Shown: positions 1,338-30,566 of the stretch, one piece after another
How the letters are laid out: every line of letters begins with the position of its first letter
How positions within the stretch are numbered: the stretch's first letter is position 1
DNA from: an uncultured Gemmatimonadales bacterium
GTDB lineage: Bacteria; Gemmatimonadota; Gemmatimonadetes; Gemmatimonadales; JACORV01
Length of the DNA stretch: 64,000 nt
Direction of reading: 5' to 3'
Assembly: GCA_963812035.1 (NCBI GenBank)
Contig: CAWETG010000001.1
Span: 654,987 to 718,986 of the forward strand
Translations under genes and position numbers: made by a program
The notes under the pieces: model-generated
Database searches by the model: none
What the model was told of the DNA's origin: nothing
Seen by the model: only the letters and a program-made list of their open reading frames with translations

Positions 1338-4238
1338 CTACCTGCTCGCGCTTCTCGGGTCCGGTCGCACCGTGAAGGTCTGCGTGTAGCTCTGCCCGTT
1401 GACGGTGAGCTTCGCCGTGAACGTGCCGGTGAGCAGCCGGACGGGGCCGCGGCGGAAGCCGCCCGCCCCACCTGCGCCCGGGCCACCCCGGGTCGGAGCC
1501 ACCGGGCGCCAGACCACGCGGTGCATGCCGGCCGCAACCGAGAACGGCTCGGGCACCGGCTGCCAGAGCGGCGAGACGCGCGGAATGCCGGCTGCCGCGC
1601 CGGGTCCGCGGCCGCCCGCCGGTGTCGACTCGCTCGCCGGCGCACTCGAGAAAATCCTGAGGCTCGCGCCGCTCGCGTCGAGGATCTCGAGCGTCACCGG
1701 TCCCGTTGCGGCGCTCTTGAGGTAGTAGTCGATGACGGCTCCGTCCGGCGGGTTCGGCGCCTGCGGCTCGTCCTTCTGCAGCGGCGTGCCGTCGTCTCCA
1801 CCCTGGATCACGTTGATCGCGTCGGCCGGCTTGAAGAGGTACGCGTCGGACGCGAGCACCGCGTCGCTGATCTGGCGGAGCGGGCTGATGTCGTCGATCA
1901 CCCAGAAGCCGCGGCCGTGCGTGGCGACGATCAGGTCGTTGTTGTAGATCGCGAAGTCGCGCGTCGAGTTGGGCGGCAGGTTGAGCTGCAGCGGCTGCCA
2001 GTGGTCGCCGTCGTCGAACGAGACGAACGCGCCGCGCTCCGTGCCGGCGAACAGGAGGCCGCGCCGCACGGGATCTTCCTTGATCGTGTGCACATACACC
2101 CCGGCCGGCAGCCCGCTGCTGATCTTCTCCCAGGTCCTGCCCAGGTCGCGGGTGCGATAGACGGACGGATCGAAGTCGTCGAGCTGGTGGCGGTCCACGC
2201 TGGCATACGCCGTGTTGAAGTCGAAGTGCGACGCCTCCACCATGGTGACCCTGCTCCACGCGCTCAGCGCCGGCGGTGTGACGTTCCGCCACGTCGCGCC
2301 ATCGTCCATCGTGAGCTGGATCAGGCCGTCGTCGGTGCCCACCCACAGCATCGGCACGAGGACCGGCGAGGGAGCGATCGTGTAGATCACGCCGCGCCGG
2401 CTGTTGCCGTTGTCGGCGGCGGCCGCCGCGTCCAGGTTCGGCGGGACGCCCGGATCGGGCCGCGTGAGGTCGGGACTGATCTGCTTCCAGGTCTGCGCGC
2501 CGTCGGTCGTCTTGAACAGGAACTGGTTCGCGTAGTACAGCGCGCGCGGATCGGCCGGCGAGAGCACCAGCGGCTGCGTCCAGTCGCTGCGCGCCGGCTC
2601 GGGGCTCTGCGGCGTGGTGGTACCGGGCACCGCGCTGTTGGTCTCGAGGTCCCAGCGGGCGCCCGCGCCGCCGTAGACGATCCCGGGATGCAGCGGGTCG
2701 CCCGCCGTGTAGCCGCTCTCGCCCCCCGCGCCGACCGGCTCCCAGTCGTGCTCCGAGATCTCCGCGAACTTGCCGCGCGACCGCACCGCCACGGTGCCGC
2801 TGTCCTGCTGTGCGCCCGTCACCCAGTACGGGAACCGATAATCGACCGAGACGTGGTAGATCTGCGCAGTCGGCTGGTTGAGCCAGGAACTCCAGGTCAC
2901 GTCCCTGGGATCGTCGGCCCTCGCGTTCCGGGTGATGATCGCGCCCTGGTCGCTCGCCGCGATCAGCGTGTCGGGATCGTCGGGCGAGATCCAGATCTGG
3001 TGATAGTCGTCGCCGCCCGGGGAACCGCGGAGCGCGACCCAGGTCTTCCCGCCGTCCTTGGTCCGGTTCACGGCGACGTTCGGCACGTAGACGATGTCGG
3101 GGTCACGCGGATCCACCGCGATCTTCTCGAAGTACCAGCCCCTTCCCCACAACGCGGGATCGGACGAGAGTCTGGCCCACGTGGCGCCACCGTCATCGGA
3201 GCGGAAGAACCCACCCTGCCCCGGAGGCGCCTGCGGACCGCCGCGCCCCTCGCCTGCCGGCGCCGCAGGTTGAGCGGCCGGCGCGCCCGCCGCCGGTGTC
3301 TCCGGCACGAGGCAGTCCACGACCGCGTATACTCGCCGCGGGTTGCTCGGCGACACCGCGATGCCGGTCCTTCCGATTCCCTCCTTCGGCAGCCCCGCCG
3401 TGAGCTGCTTCCACGTCGCGCCGCCGTCCGTCGACTTGTAGATGCCGCCCCCCGGCCCATTGGTCGGCGCGTAGGTGAACCACGGCGGACGGCGCGTATT
3501 CCACAGACCGGCGTACACCACGTGTGAATTGACCGGATCGATGACGACCTCGACGGCGCCGACGTCCTCGTTCTGGTAGAGGACCTGCTCCCAGCTCCGG
3601 CCGCCGTCCCGCGACCGGTACACCCCGCGCTCGCGGTTGGCCGAGTACAGCGAGCCCATCGCCGCAACGAAGACGACGTCTGCGTTCCGCGGGTCCACCG
3701 CGATCTTGCCGATGTGTTGCGTGCCCTCGAGGCCGAGATGCGTCCAAGTGCGGCCACCGTCGGCGGACTTGTAGAGACCGTTCCCGTAGCCGGTCGAATC
3801 GCGCGGCGTGGATTCCCCGCTGCCCACGTACAGCACGTCCGGCGCCGAGGGCGCCACCGCCATCGCACCGATGGAGGCGACGGGCTGCGAGTCGAAGATC
3901 GGCGTCCACACGCGGCCGCCGTCGATCGTCTTCCACAGGCCGCCGTTGACCGAGCCGAAGTAGAACTCGTTCGGCCGGCCCCTGACCCCGGCCACGGCGT
4001 CCACCCGTCCGCCGCGGAACGGGCCGAGCATGCGCCACTTCAAGCCGGAATAGAGATCGGCGGGCTGCTGCTCACGGGTCGCCGTCAGGAGACCGGGAGA
4101 CGGCTGCCGACCACCCGCTGGCGACGGGGCGGAGGTCAGGGCGTGGCCGAGCCACGGGCCGAGGGCGAACGCTCCCCATCCTGCCTGACCAACGAGGACG
4201 AGGAACTCGCGGCGCGGGAAACCGATCTCGCCGGGCAA
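1338..4238 (-). CDS. BNR/Asp-box repeat beta-propeller protein (sortilin/VPS10- or GH74-like), probable Tat-exported
   Basis: 966-aa ORF with at least 8 Asp-box motifs (SADGGRTW, SRDGGRSW, STDGGATW, SDDGGATW, TKDGGKTW, TTDGAQTW, TRDLGRTW...). N-terminal PRREFLVL twin-arginine-like signal. The stop lies 14 nt before the malQ start. Confidence 0.8.
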   Translation of the reverse strand: MPGEIGFPRREFLVLVGQAGWGAFALGPWLGHALTSAPSPAGGRQPSPGLLTATREQQPADLYSGLKWRMLGPFRGGRVDAVAGVRGRPNEFYFGSVNGGLWKTIDGGRVWTPIFDSQPVASIGAMAVAPSAPDVLYVGSGESTPRDSTGYGNGLYKSADGGRTWTHLGLEGTQHIGKIAVDPRNADVVFVAAMGSLYSANRERGVYRSRDGGRSWEQVLYQNEDVGAVEVVIDPVNSHVVYAGLWNTRRPPWFTYAPTNGPGGGIYKSTDGGATWKQLTAGLPKEGIGRTGIAVSPSNPRRVYAVVDCLVPETPAAGAPAAQPAAPAGEGRGGPQAPPGQGGFFRSDDGGATWARLSSDPALWGRGWYFEKIAVDPRDPDIVYVPNVAVNRTKDGGKTWVALRGSPGGDDYHQIWISPDDPDTLIAASDQGAIITRNARADDPRDVTWSSWLNQPTAQIYHVSVDYRFPYWVTGAQQDSGTVAVRSRGKFAEISEHDWEPVGAGGESGYTAGDPLHPGIVYGGAGARWDLETNSAVPGTTTPQSPEPARSDWTQPLVLSPADPRALYYANQFLFKTTDGAQTWKQISPDLTRPDPGVPPNLDAAAAADNGNSRRGVIYTIAPSPVLVPMLWVGTDDGLIQLTMDDGATWRNVTPPALSAWSRVTMVEASHFDFNTAYASVDRHQLDDFDPSVYRTRDLGRTWEKISSGLPAGVYVHTIKEDPVRRGLLFAGTERGAFVSFDDGDHWQPLQLNLPPNSTRDFAIYNNDLIVATHGRGFWVIDDISPLRQISDAVLASDAYLFKPADAINVIQGGDDGTPLQKDEPQAPNPPDGAVIDYYLKSAATGPVTLEILDASGASLRIFSSAPASESTPAGGRGPGAAAGIPRVSPLWQPVPEPFSVAAGMHRVVWRPVAPTRGGPGAGGAGGFRRGPVRLLTGTFTAKLTVNGQSYTQTFTVRPDPRSASR

Positions 4239-26895: not shown

Positions 26896-27746
26896 ACGCC
26901 GTGGAGCGCCGCGCCCGCCGGACCCCGCGCAGCCTGCGTTCGGAGTACGAGGAGTTCATCGAGCAGCGCATCGAGGAATACAAGGACGGCCTGCCGCGAG
27001 CGTCGATCCTCGGCATCGGCGACGAGGCCGTCCAGGAGTTGGCCCGCACCGAGCAGTACCAACTGACCGAGGTGCTCCTCCAGGAACAGGTGGATTCCAT
27101 CATCCGCCGGCGCCTCCGGCTGCCGTCGTACCGTCGCTGGCGCGAGCGCCACGTCGCCCTGCGCGCCGCGCAGGCACAGCCGTCGCACTGGGGGCTCGCC
27201 CCGAACGACCCGGTGGTCAGCCTGGCCGATCGCATCGAGGATCTGGACCTGATCGCGGTGGTGGGCGCCGCCGACGGCGCCTGCGCGCTGTTCCTCGCCG
27301 CGCGCGGCGCCTCCGTGCTGGTGGGCGACCCCGACCTCGCCGCCATCGAGGGGCTCGAGAACCGCGCCATCGCAGAGCAGCTCGGCAGCCGCGTCGAGTG
27401 CCGCGTCGTCCCGCTCGAAGCGTGGACGCCGGATCGCGCCATCGACGGCTGCGTTATCGAAACACCCGCGCTCGCGGGACTCGCCGCCGGCGACCGCGCC
27501 GAACTCATCCGGCGGTTCAAGGCGGTCACCACCGCCGGCGGCCACCACGTCGTGATGCCCGCGGTGAGTTCGGGCGGCAAGGCCGCGGCGGTCTCCAGCG
27601 ACGCGCTGCGCTCCCTCTACGCGGATTGGACCGTCGCGCGCGCGCAGCCGCCCGCCCCGAGCGCCCGTCGCTCGCGCAACGTCGGATTCATCGCAACCCA
27701 CCCCGGTCCGGGTCAGAGTGAAACGAGCCAGGCTGTGTCCAACTGA
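26889..27746 (+). CDS. hypothetical protein with a C-terminal Rossmann/methyltransferase-like fold
   Basis: GTG start overlaps the CDF stop by 7 nt. VVGAADGACALFLAARGASV resembles SAM-MTase motif I. The N-terminal half is a charged helical region. Confidence 0.5.
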   Translation: MLNAVERRARRTPRSLRSEYEEFIEQRIEEYKDGLPRASILGIGDEAVQELARTEQYQLTEVLLQEQVDSIIRRRLRLPSYRRWRERHVALRAAQAQPSHWGLAPNDPVVSLADRIEDLDLIAVVGAADGACALFLAARGASVLVGDPDLAAIEGLENRAIAEQLGSRVECRVVPLEAWTPDRAIDGCVIETPALAGLAAGDRAELIRRFKAVTTAGGHHVVMPAVSSGGKAAAVSSDALRSLYADWTVARAQPPAPSARRSRNVGFIATHPGPGQSETSQAVSN

Positions 27747-27906
27747 CACGGAATCTTGATTGCGGTTCCTGCAGTAGTGTGTAACAAGCAACAGGACAAT
27801 CACTTACAAACAAGAGTCCCAGGCACGGCGAATGCCATACGTAGAGGCAGCGGTTCGTGTGCGCGCCAGGCGCGCGGAGTCCTCTCCTCGGTGGCAGGAA
27901 GGTCGT

Positions 27907-28056
27907 ATGACGACAGCCGTATTGGCGGCCAATGAGCCCGTGGGAATCGTGATCCGCGACGGCGGCAACGTTCGCCGCGTGCCGCGCATCCTGATGTGGT
28001 TCTGGGCGAATGAGGAAGAGGCGAACGACGAGGAGGAGTGGCGGGAGCGGACTTAG
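27907..28056 (+). CDS. orphan small protein (49 aa), acidic C-terminus
   Basis: GGAAGG SD 5 nt before ATG 27907. A strong intrinsic terminator follows. The upstream region is AT-rich. Confidence 0.45.
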   Translation: MTTAVLAANEPVGIVIRDGGNVRRVPRILMWFWANEEEANDEEEWRERT

Positions 28057-28084
28057 CTCGCCCTGCCGCAGACGTCGGTGACCG

Positions 28085-28115
28085 GGGCCCGGCCGTGTGC
28101 CGGGCCCTTTCTATT
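28085..28115 (+). terminator. rho-independent terminator
   Basis: gggcccggc / cgtgt / gccgggccc gives a perfect 9-bp GC stem, followed by tttctatt. Confidence 0.75.
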
Positions 28116-28153
28116 CCCTTCCCTGGGTGGTCAGACTGGACGGCTACAGGACG

Positions 28154-28318
28154 CAGAACAGTTGCGAGACGCAGAGTTGCGATGTGGTCTGGAGTCTGGA
28201 ACTGTCAGTTGAGAGTGCCCTTCCTCCCACCCGCCAACTTGCCTGCACACTCACCGCCCCCACCTCGTAAGCTCTCGCAACTCGGCGTCTCGCAGCTCAA
28301 CTGACAGCCGCTGTTCTC
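28154..28318. repeat. compound/nested copy of the AGTTGCGAGA palindromic repeat family
   Basis: cagaacagttgcgagacgcagagttgcga on the left pairs with ctcgcaactcggcgtctcgcagctcaactgacagccgctgttctc on the right. An inner ctgtcagttgag pairs with ctcaactgacag. Confidence 0.75.
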
Positions 28319-28337: not shown

Positions 28338-30140
28338 TCAGATCCCCAGCTCCGCCCTGGCCTCCGCCGGCAGCCAGCGGCGCGCCCGGCCGATCGGGAT
28401 CGCGAAGCCGAGGGCGACCGGTGTGCTCTCGCCGGCCGGCGACGCGTACGCGCCGTAGTGGACGCCGATTACCGCGCCCTCGGCATCGAACACGGGGCTC
28501 CCGGACGAGCCGGCGTCGGTGGAGCCGGCGAACTGGATCCACTCGCTGGTGGCCTTGGCGATAACCCCGGCAAACATCGTCGTGCGCACAAAGCCGTTGG
28601 GGTCGAACGCCAGCTGCGTGCCGCGGGGGAAGCCGATCAGCGCCGCGGGCGCTCCCTGCCGGACACCGCGCCCCGTCCAGTCGATGGTCCGGACCACGGC
28701 GCCGTGGAAGTTGCGGATCTTGAGGACGGCGATGTCCTGGTCCTGCACGTTGCTGGCGGCGATCAGGTCGGCCACCAGCGGCGTGCGCGTATCGGCCATC
28801 ACCACCTCGATGGCGCGCGGCCGGCCGCGGCCCCGATCCTGGACCACGTGCCCATTGGTCAGCAGGTAGCCGGACGGCGTGATGACGAAGCCACTCCCCA
28901 TCACCGAATCGGACTGGTAGCGGACGATCACCAGCCCTACCGCCGCCTGGTTCTCGGCCGAGACGCGCGAGAAGTCCGCCACCGTCGAGGGGCCGACGGC
29001 GGAGCCGGCGCGGGATTCCGCGTCCCGCAGCTTGGCCTCGAGGCTCTCCACCACCTCGCGCGGCACGCTGGACTGCCGCGCCGCGGTGAGATCGCGGCGC
29101 AGCCGCACGATGACGGAATCCGCCCGGAGCTGCGCCTCGCTCGCCGACCGGAGCTGGGCGGCGAACGCGCGCTCCGCGCTGGCCAGCCGCAGCTCGGCCG
29201 CGGCCCGCTCGCGCGAGGCGCTCCGGTAGATCAGCGTCACGACCACCGCCAGCGCGACGATGGTCAGGATGACGCCCGCGCGGAAGGACGACGACGACTC
29301 CCGCGCCATCTGCCGCGCGAGCGATCGGACGAACACTCCCGCGCGGGCGCCCCGGGCCGCACCGGCCTCGCCGCGCGCCACCTGCACGATGCCGGCGAGC
29401 GTCTTGGGCGGCTGCAGTCGCGGACGGTACTCCGCTCCCTGGCCCTCCGGGAGGCTGGCCGCACCCAGCACCCGCACTTCGAACAGCGGGCCGTGCCAGC
29501 CGAGCATGACGCGGTCGCCCAGCTTCAACATGGCAGGCCCGCGGACCTGCTGGCCGTTGACGTAAGTGCCGTTCCGGCTGTCGAGGTCGGTGACGGTCGC
29601 CGCCCCCGCCTCGTCGAAGGCTACGGCCGCGTGCCGCTTGGAAACCACGCTGTCGGCGACCGTGCGCAGCGGGATCGTGCAGGTGGCCGAGCGCCCCAGC
29701 AGAATCTCGCGGCCGTGACCGAGCAGGTCCTCGCCGCCCGCGACCCGCCGCAGCCGCAGCAGCGGTGGCACGGCGTCGGCCACGGGCTCGGCGTGGGTGC
29801 GCGCCAGCTCGCCTGGCAGACTCACGCGCAGCGCCGGCCCGCGCTGGCCGAGGCTGAACCGGTCGCCGGATCGCAGCGGCTCCGCCGCGGCGATCCTCCG
29901 ACCGTTCAGCCAGGTGCCGTTGGTGCTCCCGAGGTCCTCCAGCCACCACGAGCCGCCGGCGTCGCGCCACACGCGCGCGTGCACGGCGCTGACGACAGCG
30001 TCGTCCTGGTCGAACGGGATGTCGAGGGTAGGGTCGCGGCCGAGGCGCGCGGACGCGCCGTCCACGGGCAGATCGAGATCGCGTCGCTCGTCGTGCAGGA
30101 TCACGCGGCGCAATATGGGGGAAATGCGCGGGGCCGGCAA
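28338..30140 (-). CDS. FHA-FHA-transmembrane-coiled coil-trypsin-like (S1C) serine protease
   Basis: Two FHA domains (..GRDPTLDIPF..VSAVHARV..DLGSTNGTWLNG and ..LGRSATCTIPL..VSKRHAAV..DLDSRNGTYVNG). One TM segment (GVILTIVALAVVVTLIY). Protease triad contexts TNGHVV, DIAVLKI and GSSGSPV. The start is uncertain: TTG 30140, TTG 30113 or GTG 30104. Confidence 0.8.
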   Translation of the reverse strand: MPAPRISPILRRVILHDERRDLDLPVDGASARLGRDPTLDIPFDQDDAVVSAVHARVWRDAGGSWWLEDLGSTNGTWLNGRRIAAAEPLRSGDRFSLGQRGPALRVSLPGELARTHAEPVADAVPPLLRLRRVAGGEDLLGHGREILLGRSATCTIPLRTVADSVVSKRHAAVAFDEAGAATVTDLDSRNGTYVNGQQVRGPAMLKLGDRVMLGWHGPLFEVRVLGAASLPEGQGAEYRPRLQPPKTLAGIVQVARGEAGAARGARAGVFVRSLARQMARESSSSFRAGVILTIVALAVVVTLIYRSASRERAAAELRLASAERAFAAQLRSASEAQLRADSVIVRLRRDLTAARQSSVPREVVESLEAKLRDAESRAGSAVGPSTVADFSRVSAENQAAVGLVIVRYQSDSVMGSGFVITPSGYLLTNGHVVQDRGRGRPRAIEVVMADTRTPLVADLIAASNVQDQDIAVLKIRNFHGAVVRTIDWTGRGVRQGAPAALIGFPRGTQLAFDPNGFVRTTMFAGVIAKATSEWIQFAGSTDAGSSGSPVFDAEGAVIGVHYGAYASPAGESTPVALGFAIPIGRARRWLPAEARAELGI

Positions 30141-30171
30141 AATCGCCGGCCCCTGTGCATCTCCGCGAAAA

Positions 30172-30237
30172 CTACTTCTTCTTCTTCGCGGTCTTCTTTG
30201 CCGTCTTCTTGGCGGCCTTCTTCTTCTTCATCGCCAT
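30172..30237 (-). CDS. candidate 21-aa lysine-rich micropeptide MAMKKKKAAKKTAKKTAKKKK
   Basis: Below the ORF-track size cutoff. ATG 30237 is preceded by GAGGAGG (4-nt spacing). 12 of 21 codons are AAG, in a GC-rich genome. TAG stop at 30172, then a GC hairpin 17 nt downstream. Confidence 0.45.
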   Translation of the reverse strand: MAMKKKKAAKKTAKKTAKKKK

Positions 30238-30512
30238 ACAGCCTCCTCGAAATGGTGAAACACTCCGGCGGCCGGAAGTGGCCGGCGGTCAAACACCATG
30301 AATAGTGCTGTAGGTGGTGGAAGAGCAGATGTCGGAGGGGATGCCGCACGAGCCGTGGAGGGACGCCACAACCGTCGCCACGGGCGCGACTGACTTTTTC
30401 GTCTCGAGAATCGTAAAGGTTGACTCCAACCAGGCGTCTCCGCGCAGTGCGCAAAGCCTTGAGTGCCAATATATAAGAGTCGCTGCGACGCGCAATAGCT
30501 CGGAGTGGTGAT

Positions 30513-30542
30513 TTGGCACGTCACGCCGCCGTGGTGTACAAT
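30513..30542 (+). promoter_or_regulatory. candidate sigma-70 promoter of the formate dehydrogenase gene
   Basis: TTGGCA (30513-30518), 18-nt spacer, TACAAT (30537-30542). It ends 25 nt before ATG 30567. Confidence 0.45.
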
Positions 30543-30566
30543 GACGTCGACCCTTCAGACACGCCG

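Follow-up and report, generated by a model that had tools for sequence, protein, structure and literature searches.

What is a reading frame of 21 codons, more than half of them for lysine, doing directly upstream of a protease gene in a GC-rich bacterial genome? The question arises in a stretch of 64,000 nucleotides (nt) from an uncultured Gemmatimonadales bacterium (GenBank assembly GCA_963812035.1, contig CAWETG010000001.1, positions 654,987 to 718,986), which we call the window and which has a GC content of ~72%. On its minus strand, a tiny open reading frame (ORF) with a strong Shine-Dalgarno (SD) sequence is followed by a GC-rich hairpin and then by the gene for a trypsin-like protease with FHA domains. 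An earlier sequence-only reading of the locus offered three explanations: a very basic micropeptide associated with ribosomes or nucleic acids, a regulatory leader peptide whose translation or stalling remodels the hairpin over the protease start codon, or a chance ORF. By sequence comparison, the micro-ORF is conserved, changes in the manner of coding sequence, is linked to the hairpin and independent of the protease, and has analogues in three phyla. We think it quite likely that it is a real, free-standing, translated micro-gene with the hairpin as its own 3' element, and we lean, narrowly, towards the fuller statement in which its product also acts in trans by binding a polyanion.

Re-reading the window confirmed the starting observations. 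The micro-ORF runs from an ATG at 30237-30235 to a TAG at 30174-30172, it is preceded by GAGGAGG, and each of its 12 lysine codons (12/21; 57% Lys) is AAG. Such an AAG-rich run had been called unusual for a GC-rich genome, and it is: (AAG)4 occurs twice in the window, both times within the micro-ORF, against 0.00 occurrences expected from shuffles. Within the 64-kb window, no further ORF of 12-40 codons reaches a Lys content of 30%. The encoded peptide begins M-A-(A/M) and continues with Lys, Ala and Thr only, including a KKxAKK-type repeat (KKKKAAKKTAKKTAKKKK), and it lacks any hydrophobic stretch, signal or transmembrane (TM) segment. Across the variants described below, the peptide has 17-27 residues and is ~60-70% Lys, with spacers limited to Ala, Thr, Ser and Gly.

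Conservation of the micro-ORF and hairpin upstream of orthologous FHA-protease genes had been suggested as a check on these proposals. We searched one genome per species for orthologous loci with the protease as the only query (alignment A1), and the micro-ORF and hairpin proved to be present in 8/8 orthologous loci with upstream DNA. The micro-ORF lies 65-100 nt 5' of the protease, whose protein identity is 52-79%, and the peptides read MA[A/M]KKKKAAKKTAKK...KKKK over 18-22 residues. It is kept both where the upstream neighbor is a divergent fdhA-like gene (5 loci) and where other genes take this place (3 loci). A metagenome scan for the micro-ORF core added 32 Gemmatimonadales-type contigs that share the 3' hairpin, bringing the total set to 41 loci (the window and 40 others), with 22 distinct ORF sequences and 16 peptide variants. 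Common to the 40 other loci is a module of 5' stem-loop, SD, poly-lysine (poly-K) ORF and 3' hairpin, with the identity of neighboring proteins down to 49-52%. Paralogous FHA-protease loci (L010-L013, 28-30% identity) have no poly-K ORF upstream.

The pattern of change within this set is that of a coding sequence. GGAGG stands 4-5 nt before the start codon (ATG or GTG) in 39/41 loci, substitutions in the core are confined to third codon positions (GCC/GCG/GCA, ACG/ACC), and every length difference (3, 6, 12 or more nt) keeps the frame. In the KKTAKK core, the Thr is invariant in Gemmatimonadales. Because the core changes at third positions only, all indels preserve the frame, and 16 variants occur across the 41 loci, the micro-ORF appears to encode a translated low-complexity protein rather than to have arisen by chance. 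Nucleotide conservation of the whole unit, including the pyrimidine-rich linker 5' of the SD and both hairpins, exceeds that of the flanking proteins (52-90% amino acid identity).

Two observations concern the margins of this set. In one Gemmatimonadales-type contig (L088, from 3092 on), the 5' hairpin, SD and poly-K ORF are kept, and directly after the stop codon an unrelated sequence of lower GC content stands in place of both the 3' hairpin and the protease; the contig may be an assembly chimera, or the locus may have been rearranged or hit by a mobile element. Separately, longer Lys/Ala-rich ORFs of ~27-60 residues (L113, L114, L132, L150, L097 and L133) carry the KKKKAAKKTAKK core, for example MSMAKKRKVAKKAAKKAPKKKAAKKKKKTGAKKKKAAKKTAKKAATKRRKKK, and there may be a wider class of such small ORFs, with the 17-27-residue genes at its lower size limit.

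The hairpin noted between the micro-ORF and the protease is real, and its core, GGGGCCGGC-GATTTT-GCCGGCCCC, lies at 30130-30153 and starts 18 nt past the TAG, rather than at 30131-30154 and 17 nt past it as originally described. The core pattern occurs once in the window, against 0.00 expected, and the extended hairpin (30118-30166) folds on its own at -36.3 kcal/mol (z = -6.85). Across 34 distinct sequences the 9-bp stem never changes, whereas the loop varies (GATTTT, GCTTT, GCTGGTT, GAAGGCT, GCAGTCA, CAGCT and others). In 7 sequences the closing C-G pair has become U-G, a pairing that survives only in the minus-strand RNA, and one pair of the lower stem is A-U in 21 sequences and C-G in 11. 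Because of these strand-specific U-G changes and the A-U/C-G compensation, we conclude that the hairpin is an RNA structure of the micro-ORF sense transcript. Its distance from the micro-ORF stop is 13-25 nt across loci. At the other end of the unit, a hairpin occupies the same place, ~17 nt ahead of the SD, in 30/30 distinct Gemmatimonadales variants, and its stems carry compensatory changes (GGCC/GGCC, GGGC/GCCC, AGGC/GCCT, GGAC/GTCC and CGGCA/TGCCG).

The 3' stem is conserved beyond its ability to pair. Together with its flanks (TGCACA...GCGCA), the 9-bp stem is invariant in sequence across the order, over which the neighboring proteins have diverged to ~50% identity. This invariance exceeds the needs of a generic terminator and hints at an additional, sequence-specific role. 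A separate feature of the same region is a pyrimidine-rich stretch directly 3' of the micro-ORF stop (window 30154-30171, minus strand), which reads TTTTCGCGG or CTTCGCC in Gemmatimonadales and has a counterpart in Paceibacterota (TCTTTTCCTACTTCT; L189 1930-1950). Its sequence complements the GAAG repeats of the micro-ORF, with which it pairs in minimum-free-energy folds.

Rearranged loci show to which gene the 3' hairpin belongs. In L083, a 27-codon poly-K ORF and the hairpin occur without a protease gene, and the downstream genes are convergent. In L199, the 5' hairpin, SD, MAKKRKAAKKTAKKKKK and an identical 3' hairpin stand right after tldD/pmbA and are followed by a glyoxalase gene and a 77-residue ORF; the protease is 900 nt away. 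A 263-nt repeat-rich insertion in L092 splits the hairpin from the TATATT-GTG of the protease. Conversely, L201 has the protease with its own TATATT-like box and no poly-K ORF within 1.5 kb. Because these four loci separate the two units, we assign the 3' hairpin to the micro-gene rather than the protease. Two of the rearrangements have features of their own: the L092 insertion (about 3860-4120) is a large imperfect inverted repeat, in which purine-rich GGAGG/GGGGCG repeats come first and their pyrimidine-rich complement second, and it resembles a miniature inverted-repeat transposable element, and in L201 a PhdYeFM antitoxin/PIN toxin pair (702-1411) sits directly upstream of the protease in place of the poly-K module.

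The downstream gene had been identified as an FHA-protease, which its two Pfam FHA domains and Trypsin_2 domain bear out, and its database relatives are named Gemmatimonadales or Gemmatimonadetes. A TTG in the hairpin loop (30140-30138) had been put forward as its start candidate. This TTG, which spans the junction of the loop and the 3' arm, does open the longest form of the ORF, yet it is not the actual start: of 35 loci, 12 have it in the reading frame of the protease, 21 have it in another frame and 2 lack it, and in L007 a 1-nt deletion lies upstream of an ATG that stands where GTG 30104 stands elsewhere. The start position itself is conserved as GTG or ATG, and the frame upstream of it is not conserved. 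The start at TTG 30140, used by some gene callers to give forms of 600-601 residues, is thus wrong, and P0001, a database entry identical to the protease, is annotated with 588 residues.

The protease also appears to have its own promoter. We found no SD before its start. A [C/T]ATATT box precedes the GTG or ATG by 6-8 nt in 39/39 loci with the protease beside the hairpin, and it remains beside the protease start past the insertion in L092; variants occur in L199 (TAATGT) and L201 (TATTTT). In a sigma-70-type promoter, transcription starts ~6-8 nt past the -10 hexamer. Because the -10-like box lies at just this distance from the start codon, the protease mRNA would be leaderless, and the FHA-protease is probably a separate, leaderless transcription unit. 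The start lies 26 nt past the hairpin in the window and up to 279 nt past it in L092, and the distances between the two were put at 11-263 nt across loci. Since the loop TTG is not a start codon, a mechanism in which the hairpin covers the start has no substrate.

The micro-gene also has look-alikes beyond the Gemmatimonadales. Our core-pattern scan matched tiny ORFs on contigs of 36-65% GC that begin MA(A)KKKK, stop a few codons past the core and are each followed by a textbook terminator with a GC stem and a U-run. Because the pattern forces the core, their independence needed testing, and we turned to sampling anchored in synteny. The neighbor of one match (L094) is the SecA of a Candidatus Paceibacterota/Nomurabacteria organism (Patescibacteria lineage), and we picked four further Paceibacterota secA genes by protein identity only. 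An uncalled poly-K ORF lies 64-102 nt upstream of secA in 4/4 of these loci, encoding MAAKKKAKKVVKKVAKKTTKKRA, MAAKKKAKKVAKKKTAKKGKKRA, MAKKKKKAAKKGKK(KAAKKGKK)RA and MAAKKKAKKTTKKAKKTTKKRA. The order in each locus is the poly-K ORF, a canonical terminator, TGnTAATAT and, 6-7 nt later, the ATG of secA. In an Omnitrophota match (L087) the neighbors are rsfS and ribE, and in 2/3 further Omnitrophota ribE loci MAKKKAAKKKVAAKKVAKKKKK or MAKKKAKKKATAKKAKKK lies between these two genes. In both, the micro-gene is accompanied by AAGGAGGTG, a hairpin on its 5' side and a terminator. A 17-residue peptide, MAKKKKAAKKTAKKKKK, is identical in the Gemmatimonadales locus L092 (68% GC) and the Omnitrophota locus L087 (36% GC), and the nucleotide differences between the two are synonymous only.

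In a control scan of both strands of these loci (40.5 kb), the other K-rich short ORFs were only pieces inside annotated genes. Other look-alikes occur in murB...mraZ and hpf-secA neighborhoods (hpf in L137), and relatives have 16-27 residues and up to ~70% Lys. By these comparisons, the gene architecture is the same in Gemmatimonadota, Paceibacterota and Omnitrophota. Two further observations come from the Paceibacterota. Their secA also looks leaderless, so that the layout matches that of the window (micro-gene terminator, -10 box, leaderless gene); a terminator adjoining the -10 box of a leaderless gene in two phyla may reflect mere compaction or terminator-promoter coupling. In addition, the near-identical contigs L192 (1873-1923) and L193 (1849-1923) are set apart by an in-frame tandem duplication of 24 nt (AAKKGKKK), so that the poly-K repeat tract is unstable in length yet remains in frame.

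Databases and the literature gave no sign of the gene. The 21-residue peptide had no match in Pfam and NCBIfam (E<=1) or among PDB chains (E<=10), searches of low power for so short and low-complexity a query. Rfam scans of the window region and 11 other loci placed no family over the micro-gene. The scans did give a Fluoride riboswitch match at 27498-27536 (minus strand), which we judged to be chance, at 16 bits against a gathering threshold of 34 (E = 0.23) and inside a coding ORF. None of 10 micro-peptides, including a 39-residue form extended upstream, was present in an exact look-up among ~15 billion proteins, a scan of viral contigs with the core pattern returned 0 matches, and full-text literature searches found no description of this gene, with only the bS22 literature being relevant. 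We conclude that the locus holds an unannotated and probably widespread poly-lysine micro-gene.

The closest precedent is bS22 of Borrelia, a previously unannotated protein with 61% Lys or Arg that sits in a conserved ribosomal RNA (rRNA) pocket, is analogous to eL41 and mS38, and is expected by its discoverers in further bacterial lineages (10.1101/2023.04.16.537070). Like the micro-peptide, bS22, eL41 and mS38 (and also bTHX and bL37) are tiny (24-35 residues), rich in Lys and Arg (>55%), missed by annotation and conserved within lineages. With 21 residues and 57% Lys, the window peptide falls within the bS22/eL41 range of at most ~35 residues and >55% basic content. The micro-gene also shares hallmarks of high expression with the genes of tiny ribosomal proteins, namely a strong SD and stabilizing hairpins, and in two taxa it lies beside rsfS or hpf. 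The resemblance has its limits. The micro-peptide is almost pure Lys with Ala, Thr, Ser and Gly, whereas bS22 and eL41 are Arg-rich mixtures with hydrophobic anchor residues; it is even shorter than they are (17-23 residues), and its binding to the ribosome is only putative.

Histone-H1-like Lys/Ala proteins offer a second comparison. Chlamydial Hc1 and Hc2, Pseudomonas AlgP and the C-terminal tail of mycobacterial HupB have the same KK-x-A-KK periodicity, and larger metagenomic proteins carry the 12-residue core within long K/A-rich tails. However, Hc1/Hc2, AlgP and HupB are 100-350 residues long, with many repeats or a globular domain, whereas the micro-gene encodes essentially one or two repeat units and is free-standing. 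For the RNA, the relevant comparison is with intrinsic terminators, which the micro-gene resembles in its GC-rich stem-loop 13-25 nt past the stop codon. The Paceibacterota and Omnitrophota analogues have the textbook stem and U-run in this position; the window U-tract is just UUU, and the order-wide invariance of the 9-bp stem sequence is unusual among such terminators.

From these comparisons we propose that the micro-gene would be transcribed as a short monocistronic RNA of ~170 nt, from near the 5' stem-loop (30265-30288) to the 3' stem-loop (30122-30162), an extent that we infer, as we do translation, terminator activity and the target of the peptide. Given the strong SD and the stem-loops at both ends, this mRNA is probably well expressed and stable, with the 3' stem-loop ending the transcript or protecting its 3' end. 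The peptide, of charge ~+12, would then bind a polyanion in trans. Its target could be rRNA or the ribosome, as for bS22, eL41 and bTHX, or alternatively DNA, on which it would act like a single KKxAKK unit of the histone-H1/AlgP type. Because the peptide consists of Lys with Ala, Thr, Ser and Gly and has no hydrophobic or signal segment, action as a soluble polycation seems the only kind open to it. The precedent of bS22, eL41 and bTHX, together with the rsfS and hpf neighbors, weakly favors rRNA or the ribosome over DNA. Of the original proposals, then, the very basic ribosome- or nucleic-acid-associated micropeptide fits the evidence best, with the function itself only inferred.

Several points weigh against this interpretation. 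In the window, the hairpin is followed only by UUU (UUUCC), partly paired with the lower stem, and a consensus terminator scan made no call there; its function as a terminator is suggested by analogy. Some relatives (L003, L006 and L092) have UUUU(U) after the hairpin. The protease is the same-strand downstream neighbor in 39/40 Gemmatimonadales loci with enough downstream DNA, and this near-constant adjacency may leave room for some functional coupling. The initial cross-phylum matches came from a pattern forcing the KKKKAAKKTAKK core, and poly-Lys/Ala can arise convergently, so shared ancestry across the three phyla is not proven. Ribosome-related neighbors (rsfS, hpf) occur in two contexts only, a weak form of guilt by association, and the peptide, a low-power query, matched neither bS22 nor any other ribosomal-protein profile.

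The adjacency to the protease lends some weight to a cis-acting leader peptide or attenuator, in which translation or stalling on the Lys codons would tune the hairpin and hence read-through into, or translation of, the protease (or secA in Paceibacterota). Like the attenuator leaders hisL, pheL, thrL and trpL, the ORF is short, SD-driven and dominated by one codon (57%), with a strong GC hairpin 13-25 nt past its stop and a gene downstream on the same strand, namely the protease throughout the 39 loci counted above and secA at 64-102 nt in 4/4 Paceibacterota loci. The weak U-tract in the window could permit regulated read-through, and the GAAG repeats have a potential pairing partner in the pyrimidine stretch 3' of the stop. 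However, RNAalifold on 34 distinct sequences returned the terminator-type hairpin and a 5-bp helix within the ORF that does not covary, with no mutually exclusive fold; an antiterminator was sought in the same alignment and rejected, as neither terminator arm has a conserved alternative pairing. The downstream genes vary by lineage (protease, secA, hpf, ribE, mraZ, glyoxalase), none concerns lysine, and the protease has its own box. The specifics of the original leader proposal fail too: the TTG is not a start, the hairpin-to-start distance varies widely, the hairpin is separable from the protease (L083, L092, L199), and L201 has its own box with no micro-ORF. Arrest peptides such as SecM (upstream of secA), MifM and VemP invite the same comparison, since the Paceibacterota micro-ORF also adjoins secA and the window's precedes the gene for a membrane-anchored protein. 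Yet the micro-peptide lacks a signal or TM segment as well as any known arrest motif, and the protease start is not sequestered in the manner of SecM, as GTG 30104 lies 26 nt past the hairpin. In Paceibacterota there is no ribosome binding site for a stalled ribosome to unmask, because the ATG of secA follows the -10 box by 6-7 nt, past a canonical terminator. We therefore regard regulation in cis as improbable.

A non-coding or dual-function small RNA, with the ~170-nt transcript acting as RNA and the ORF incidental or secondary, seems to us less probable again. Its size and the stem-loops at both ends resemble those of small RNAs, conservation of the untranslated linker and hairpins at the nucleotide level surpasses that of the flanking proteins, and the AAR repeats fit the (A-R-N)n motif, which we take to make them a candidate platform for the distal face of Hfq or for another protein. 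Against this, the start codon and SD are kept, indels are in frame, variation falls at synonymous third positions, and the same peptide is maintained from 36% to 72% GC through AAA/AAG and GCA/GCC swaps; the duplication that distinguishes the two near-identical Paceibacterota contigs is in frame, and Rfam has no match. It is unlikely, to a slightly greater degree, that the peptide is a dedicated partner of the FHA-protease, either a substrate or inhibitor of its trypsin-like domain or a phospho-Thr ligand of its FHA domains. The tight adjacency in Gemmatimonadales, a neighbor with two FHA domains and an S1 protease domain, and the invariant Thr of the KKTAKK core would suit this role, but L083 has the micro-gene without the protease, the neighbor in other phyla is secA or ribE, and several relatives have no Thr at all (for example MAKKKKKAAKKGKKRA and MAKKKAAKKKVAAKKVAKKKKK). 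Moreover, a TM segment precedes the protease domain, which is therefore probably periplasmic, and the peptide has no export signal. A functionless chance ORF in a promoter region is scarcely credible: although the ORF is very short, of low complexity and reported by no gene caller, (AAG)4 is expected 0.00 times in the window, all orthologous loci sampled and the 32 metagenome contigs (40 other loci in all) share the SD, the start codon and both flanking hairpins, with indels in frame, and syntenic analogues exist in two other phyla.

The interpretation that we prefer, a translated micro-gene whose product binds a polyanion, would have consequences beyond this locus. If made, the peptide would be among the shortest conserved bacterial gene products, essentially a genetically encoded oligolysine, and its gene escapes every current gene caller and family library. 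A bolder suggestion is that the ~20-codon poly-lysine genes form an unrecognized, phylum-spanning family of tiny ribosome- or rRNA-bound proteins analogous to bS22 and eL41. We put this forward tentatively and consider it, on balance, doubtful; if true, a family spanning Gemmatimonadota, Patescibacteria/Paceibacterota, Omnitrophota and probably more has escaped annotation by being shorter than 30 codons and of low complexity. The ribosomes and nucleoids of these host phyla (the candidate phyla radiation/Patescibacteria, Omnitrophota and Gemmatimonadota) are barely studied. The micro-gene would be a concrete and testable proposal for a polybasic component so far missing from the ribosome or nucleoid, of interest to ribosome structural biology, small-protein research and annotation pipelines, which would need a model for it. 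Locally, two annotations change: GTG 30104 becomes the protease start, and the GC hairpin becomes the 3' end of the micro-gene instead of a translational switch.

Table 1. Features of the poly-K micro-gene, the adjoining protease gene and the Paceibacterota secA loci. Positions are those of the window unless a locus is named.
Feature	Position	Strand	Remarks
5' untranslated region stem-loop CCGCCGGCC-ACTTCC-GGCCGCCGG	30265..30288	-	-14.8 kcal/mol; one internal C.C mismatch in the window
Pyrimidine-rich linker GTTYCAYCAYTTC	30249-30264	-	5' of the SD; conserved in the alignment
Shine-Dalgarno sequence GAGGAGG	30242..30248	-	4 nt 5' of the micro-ORF ATG; (near-)invariant in the alignment
Poly-K micro-gene coding sequence MAMKKKKAAKKTAKKTAKKKK	30172..30237	-	21 codons + TAG; net charge ~+12
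3' stem-loop	30122..30162	-	9-bp core 30130-30153 lengthened by lower stem AGAUGC/GCAUUU; probable terminator or 3'-end protector
-10-like box CATATT (TATATT in most relatives)	30112..30117	-	Part of the protease gene, 7 nt before the GTG
FHA-FHA-TM-trypsin-like protease coding sequence	28338..30104	-	Corrected start GTG 30104, 588 residues; Pfam FHA x2 + Trypsin_2 (HtrA-like)
Terminator-to-secA stretch	L189 1930-2003; L192/L193 1924-2003; L194 1938-2003; L094 1842-1917		Extended -10 adjoins the terminator

TTGACC, just 5' of the 5' hairpin, was considered as a -35 element of the micro-gene and rejected, as no -10 element follows at the proper spacing. The sole sigma-70-like match of the intergenic region, TTGGCA-18-TACAAT (window 30513-30542, plus strand), points into the divergent fdhA-like gene, which encodes a molybdopterin oxidoreductase and probably starts at an ATG near 30564 (MITLTVDGR...) rather than at TTG 30513.

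On the far side of the protease, a small ORF convergent with it (window 27832-28056, plus strand) is conserved by tblastn in 8/8 orthologous loci. It is called as a gene of 44-48 residues in L199-L201, where it has no Pfam match, and the ~600 nt around it (27700-28300) have a GC content of 58-67%.

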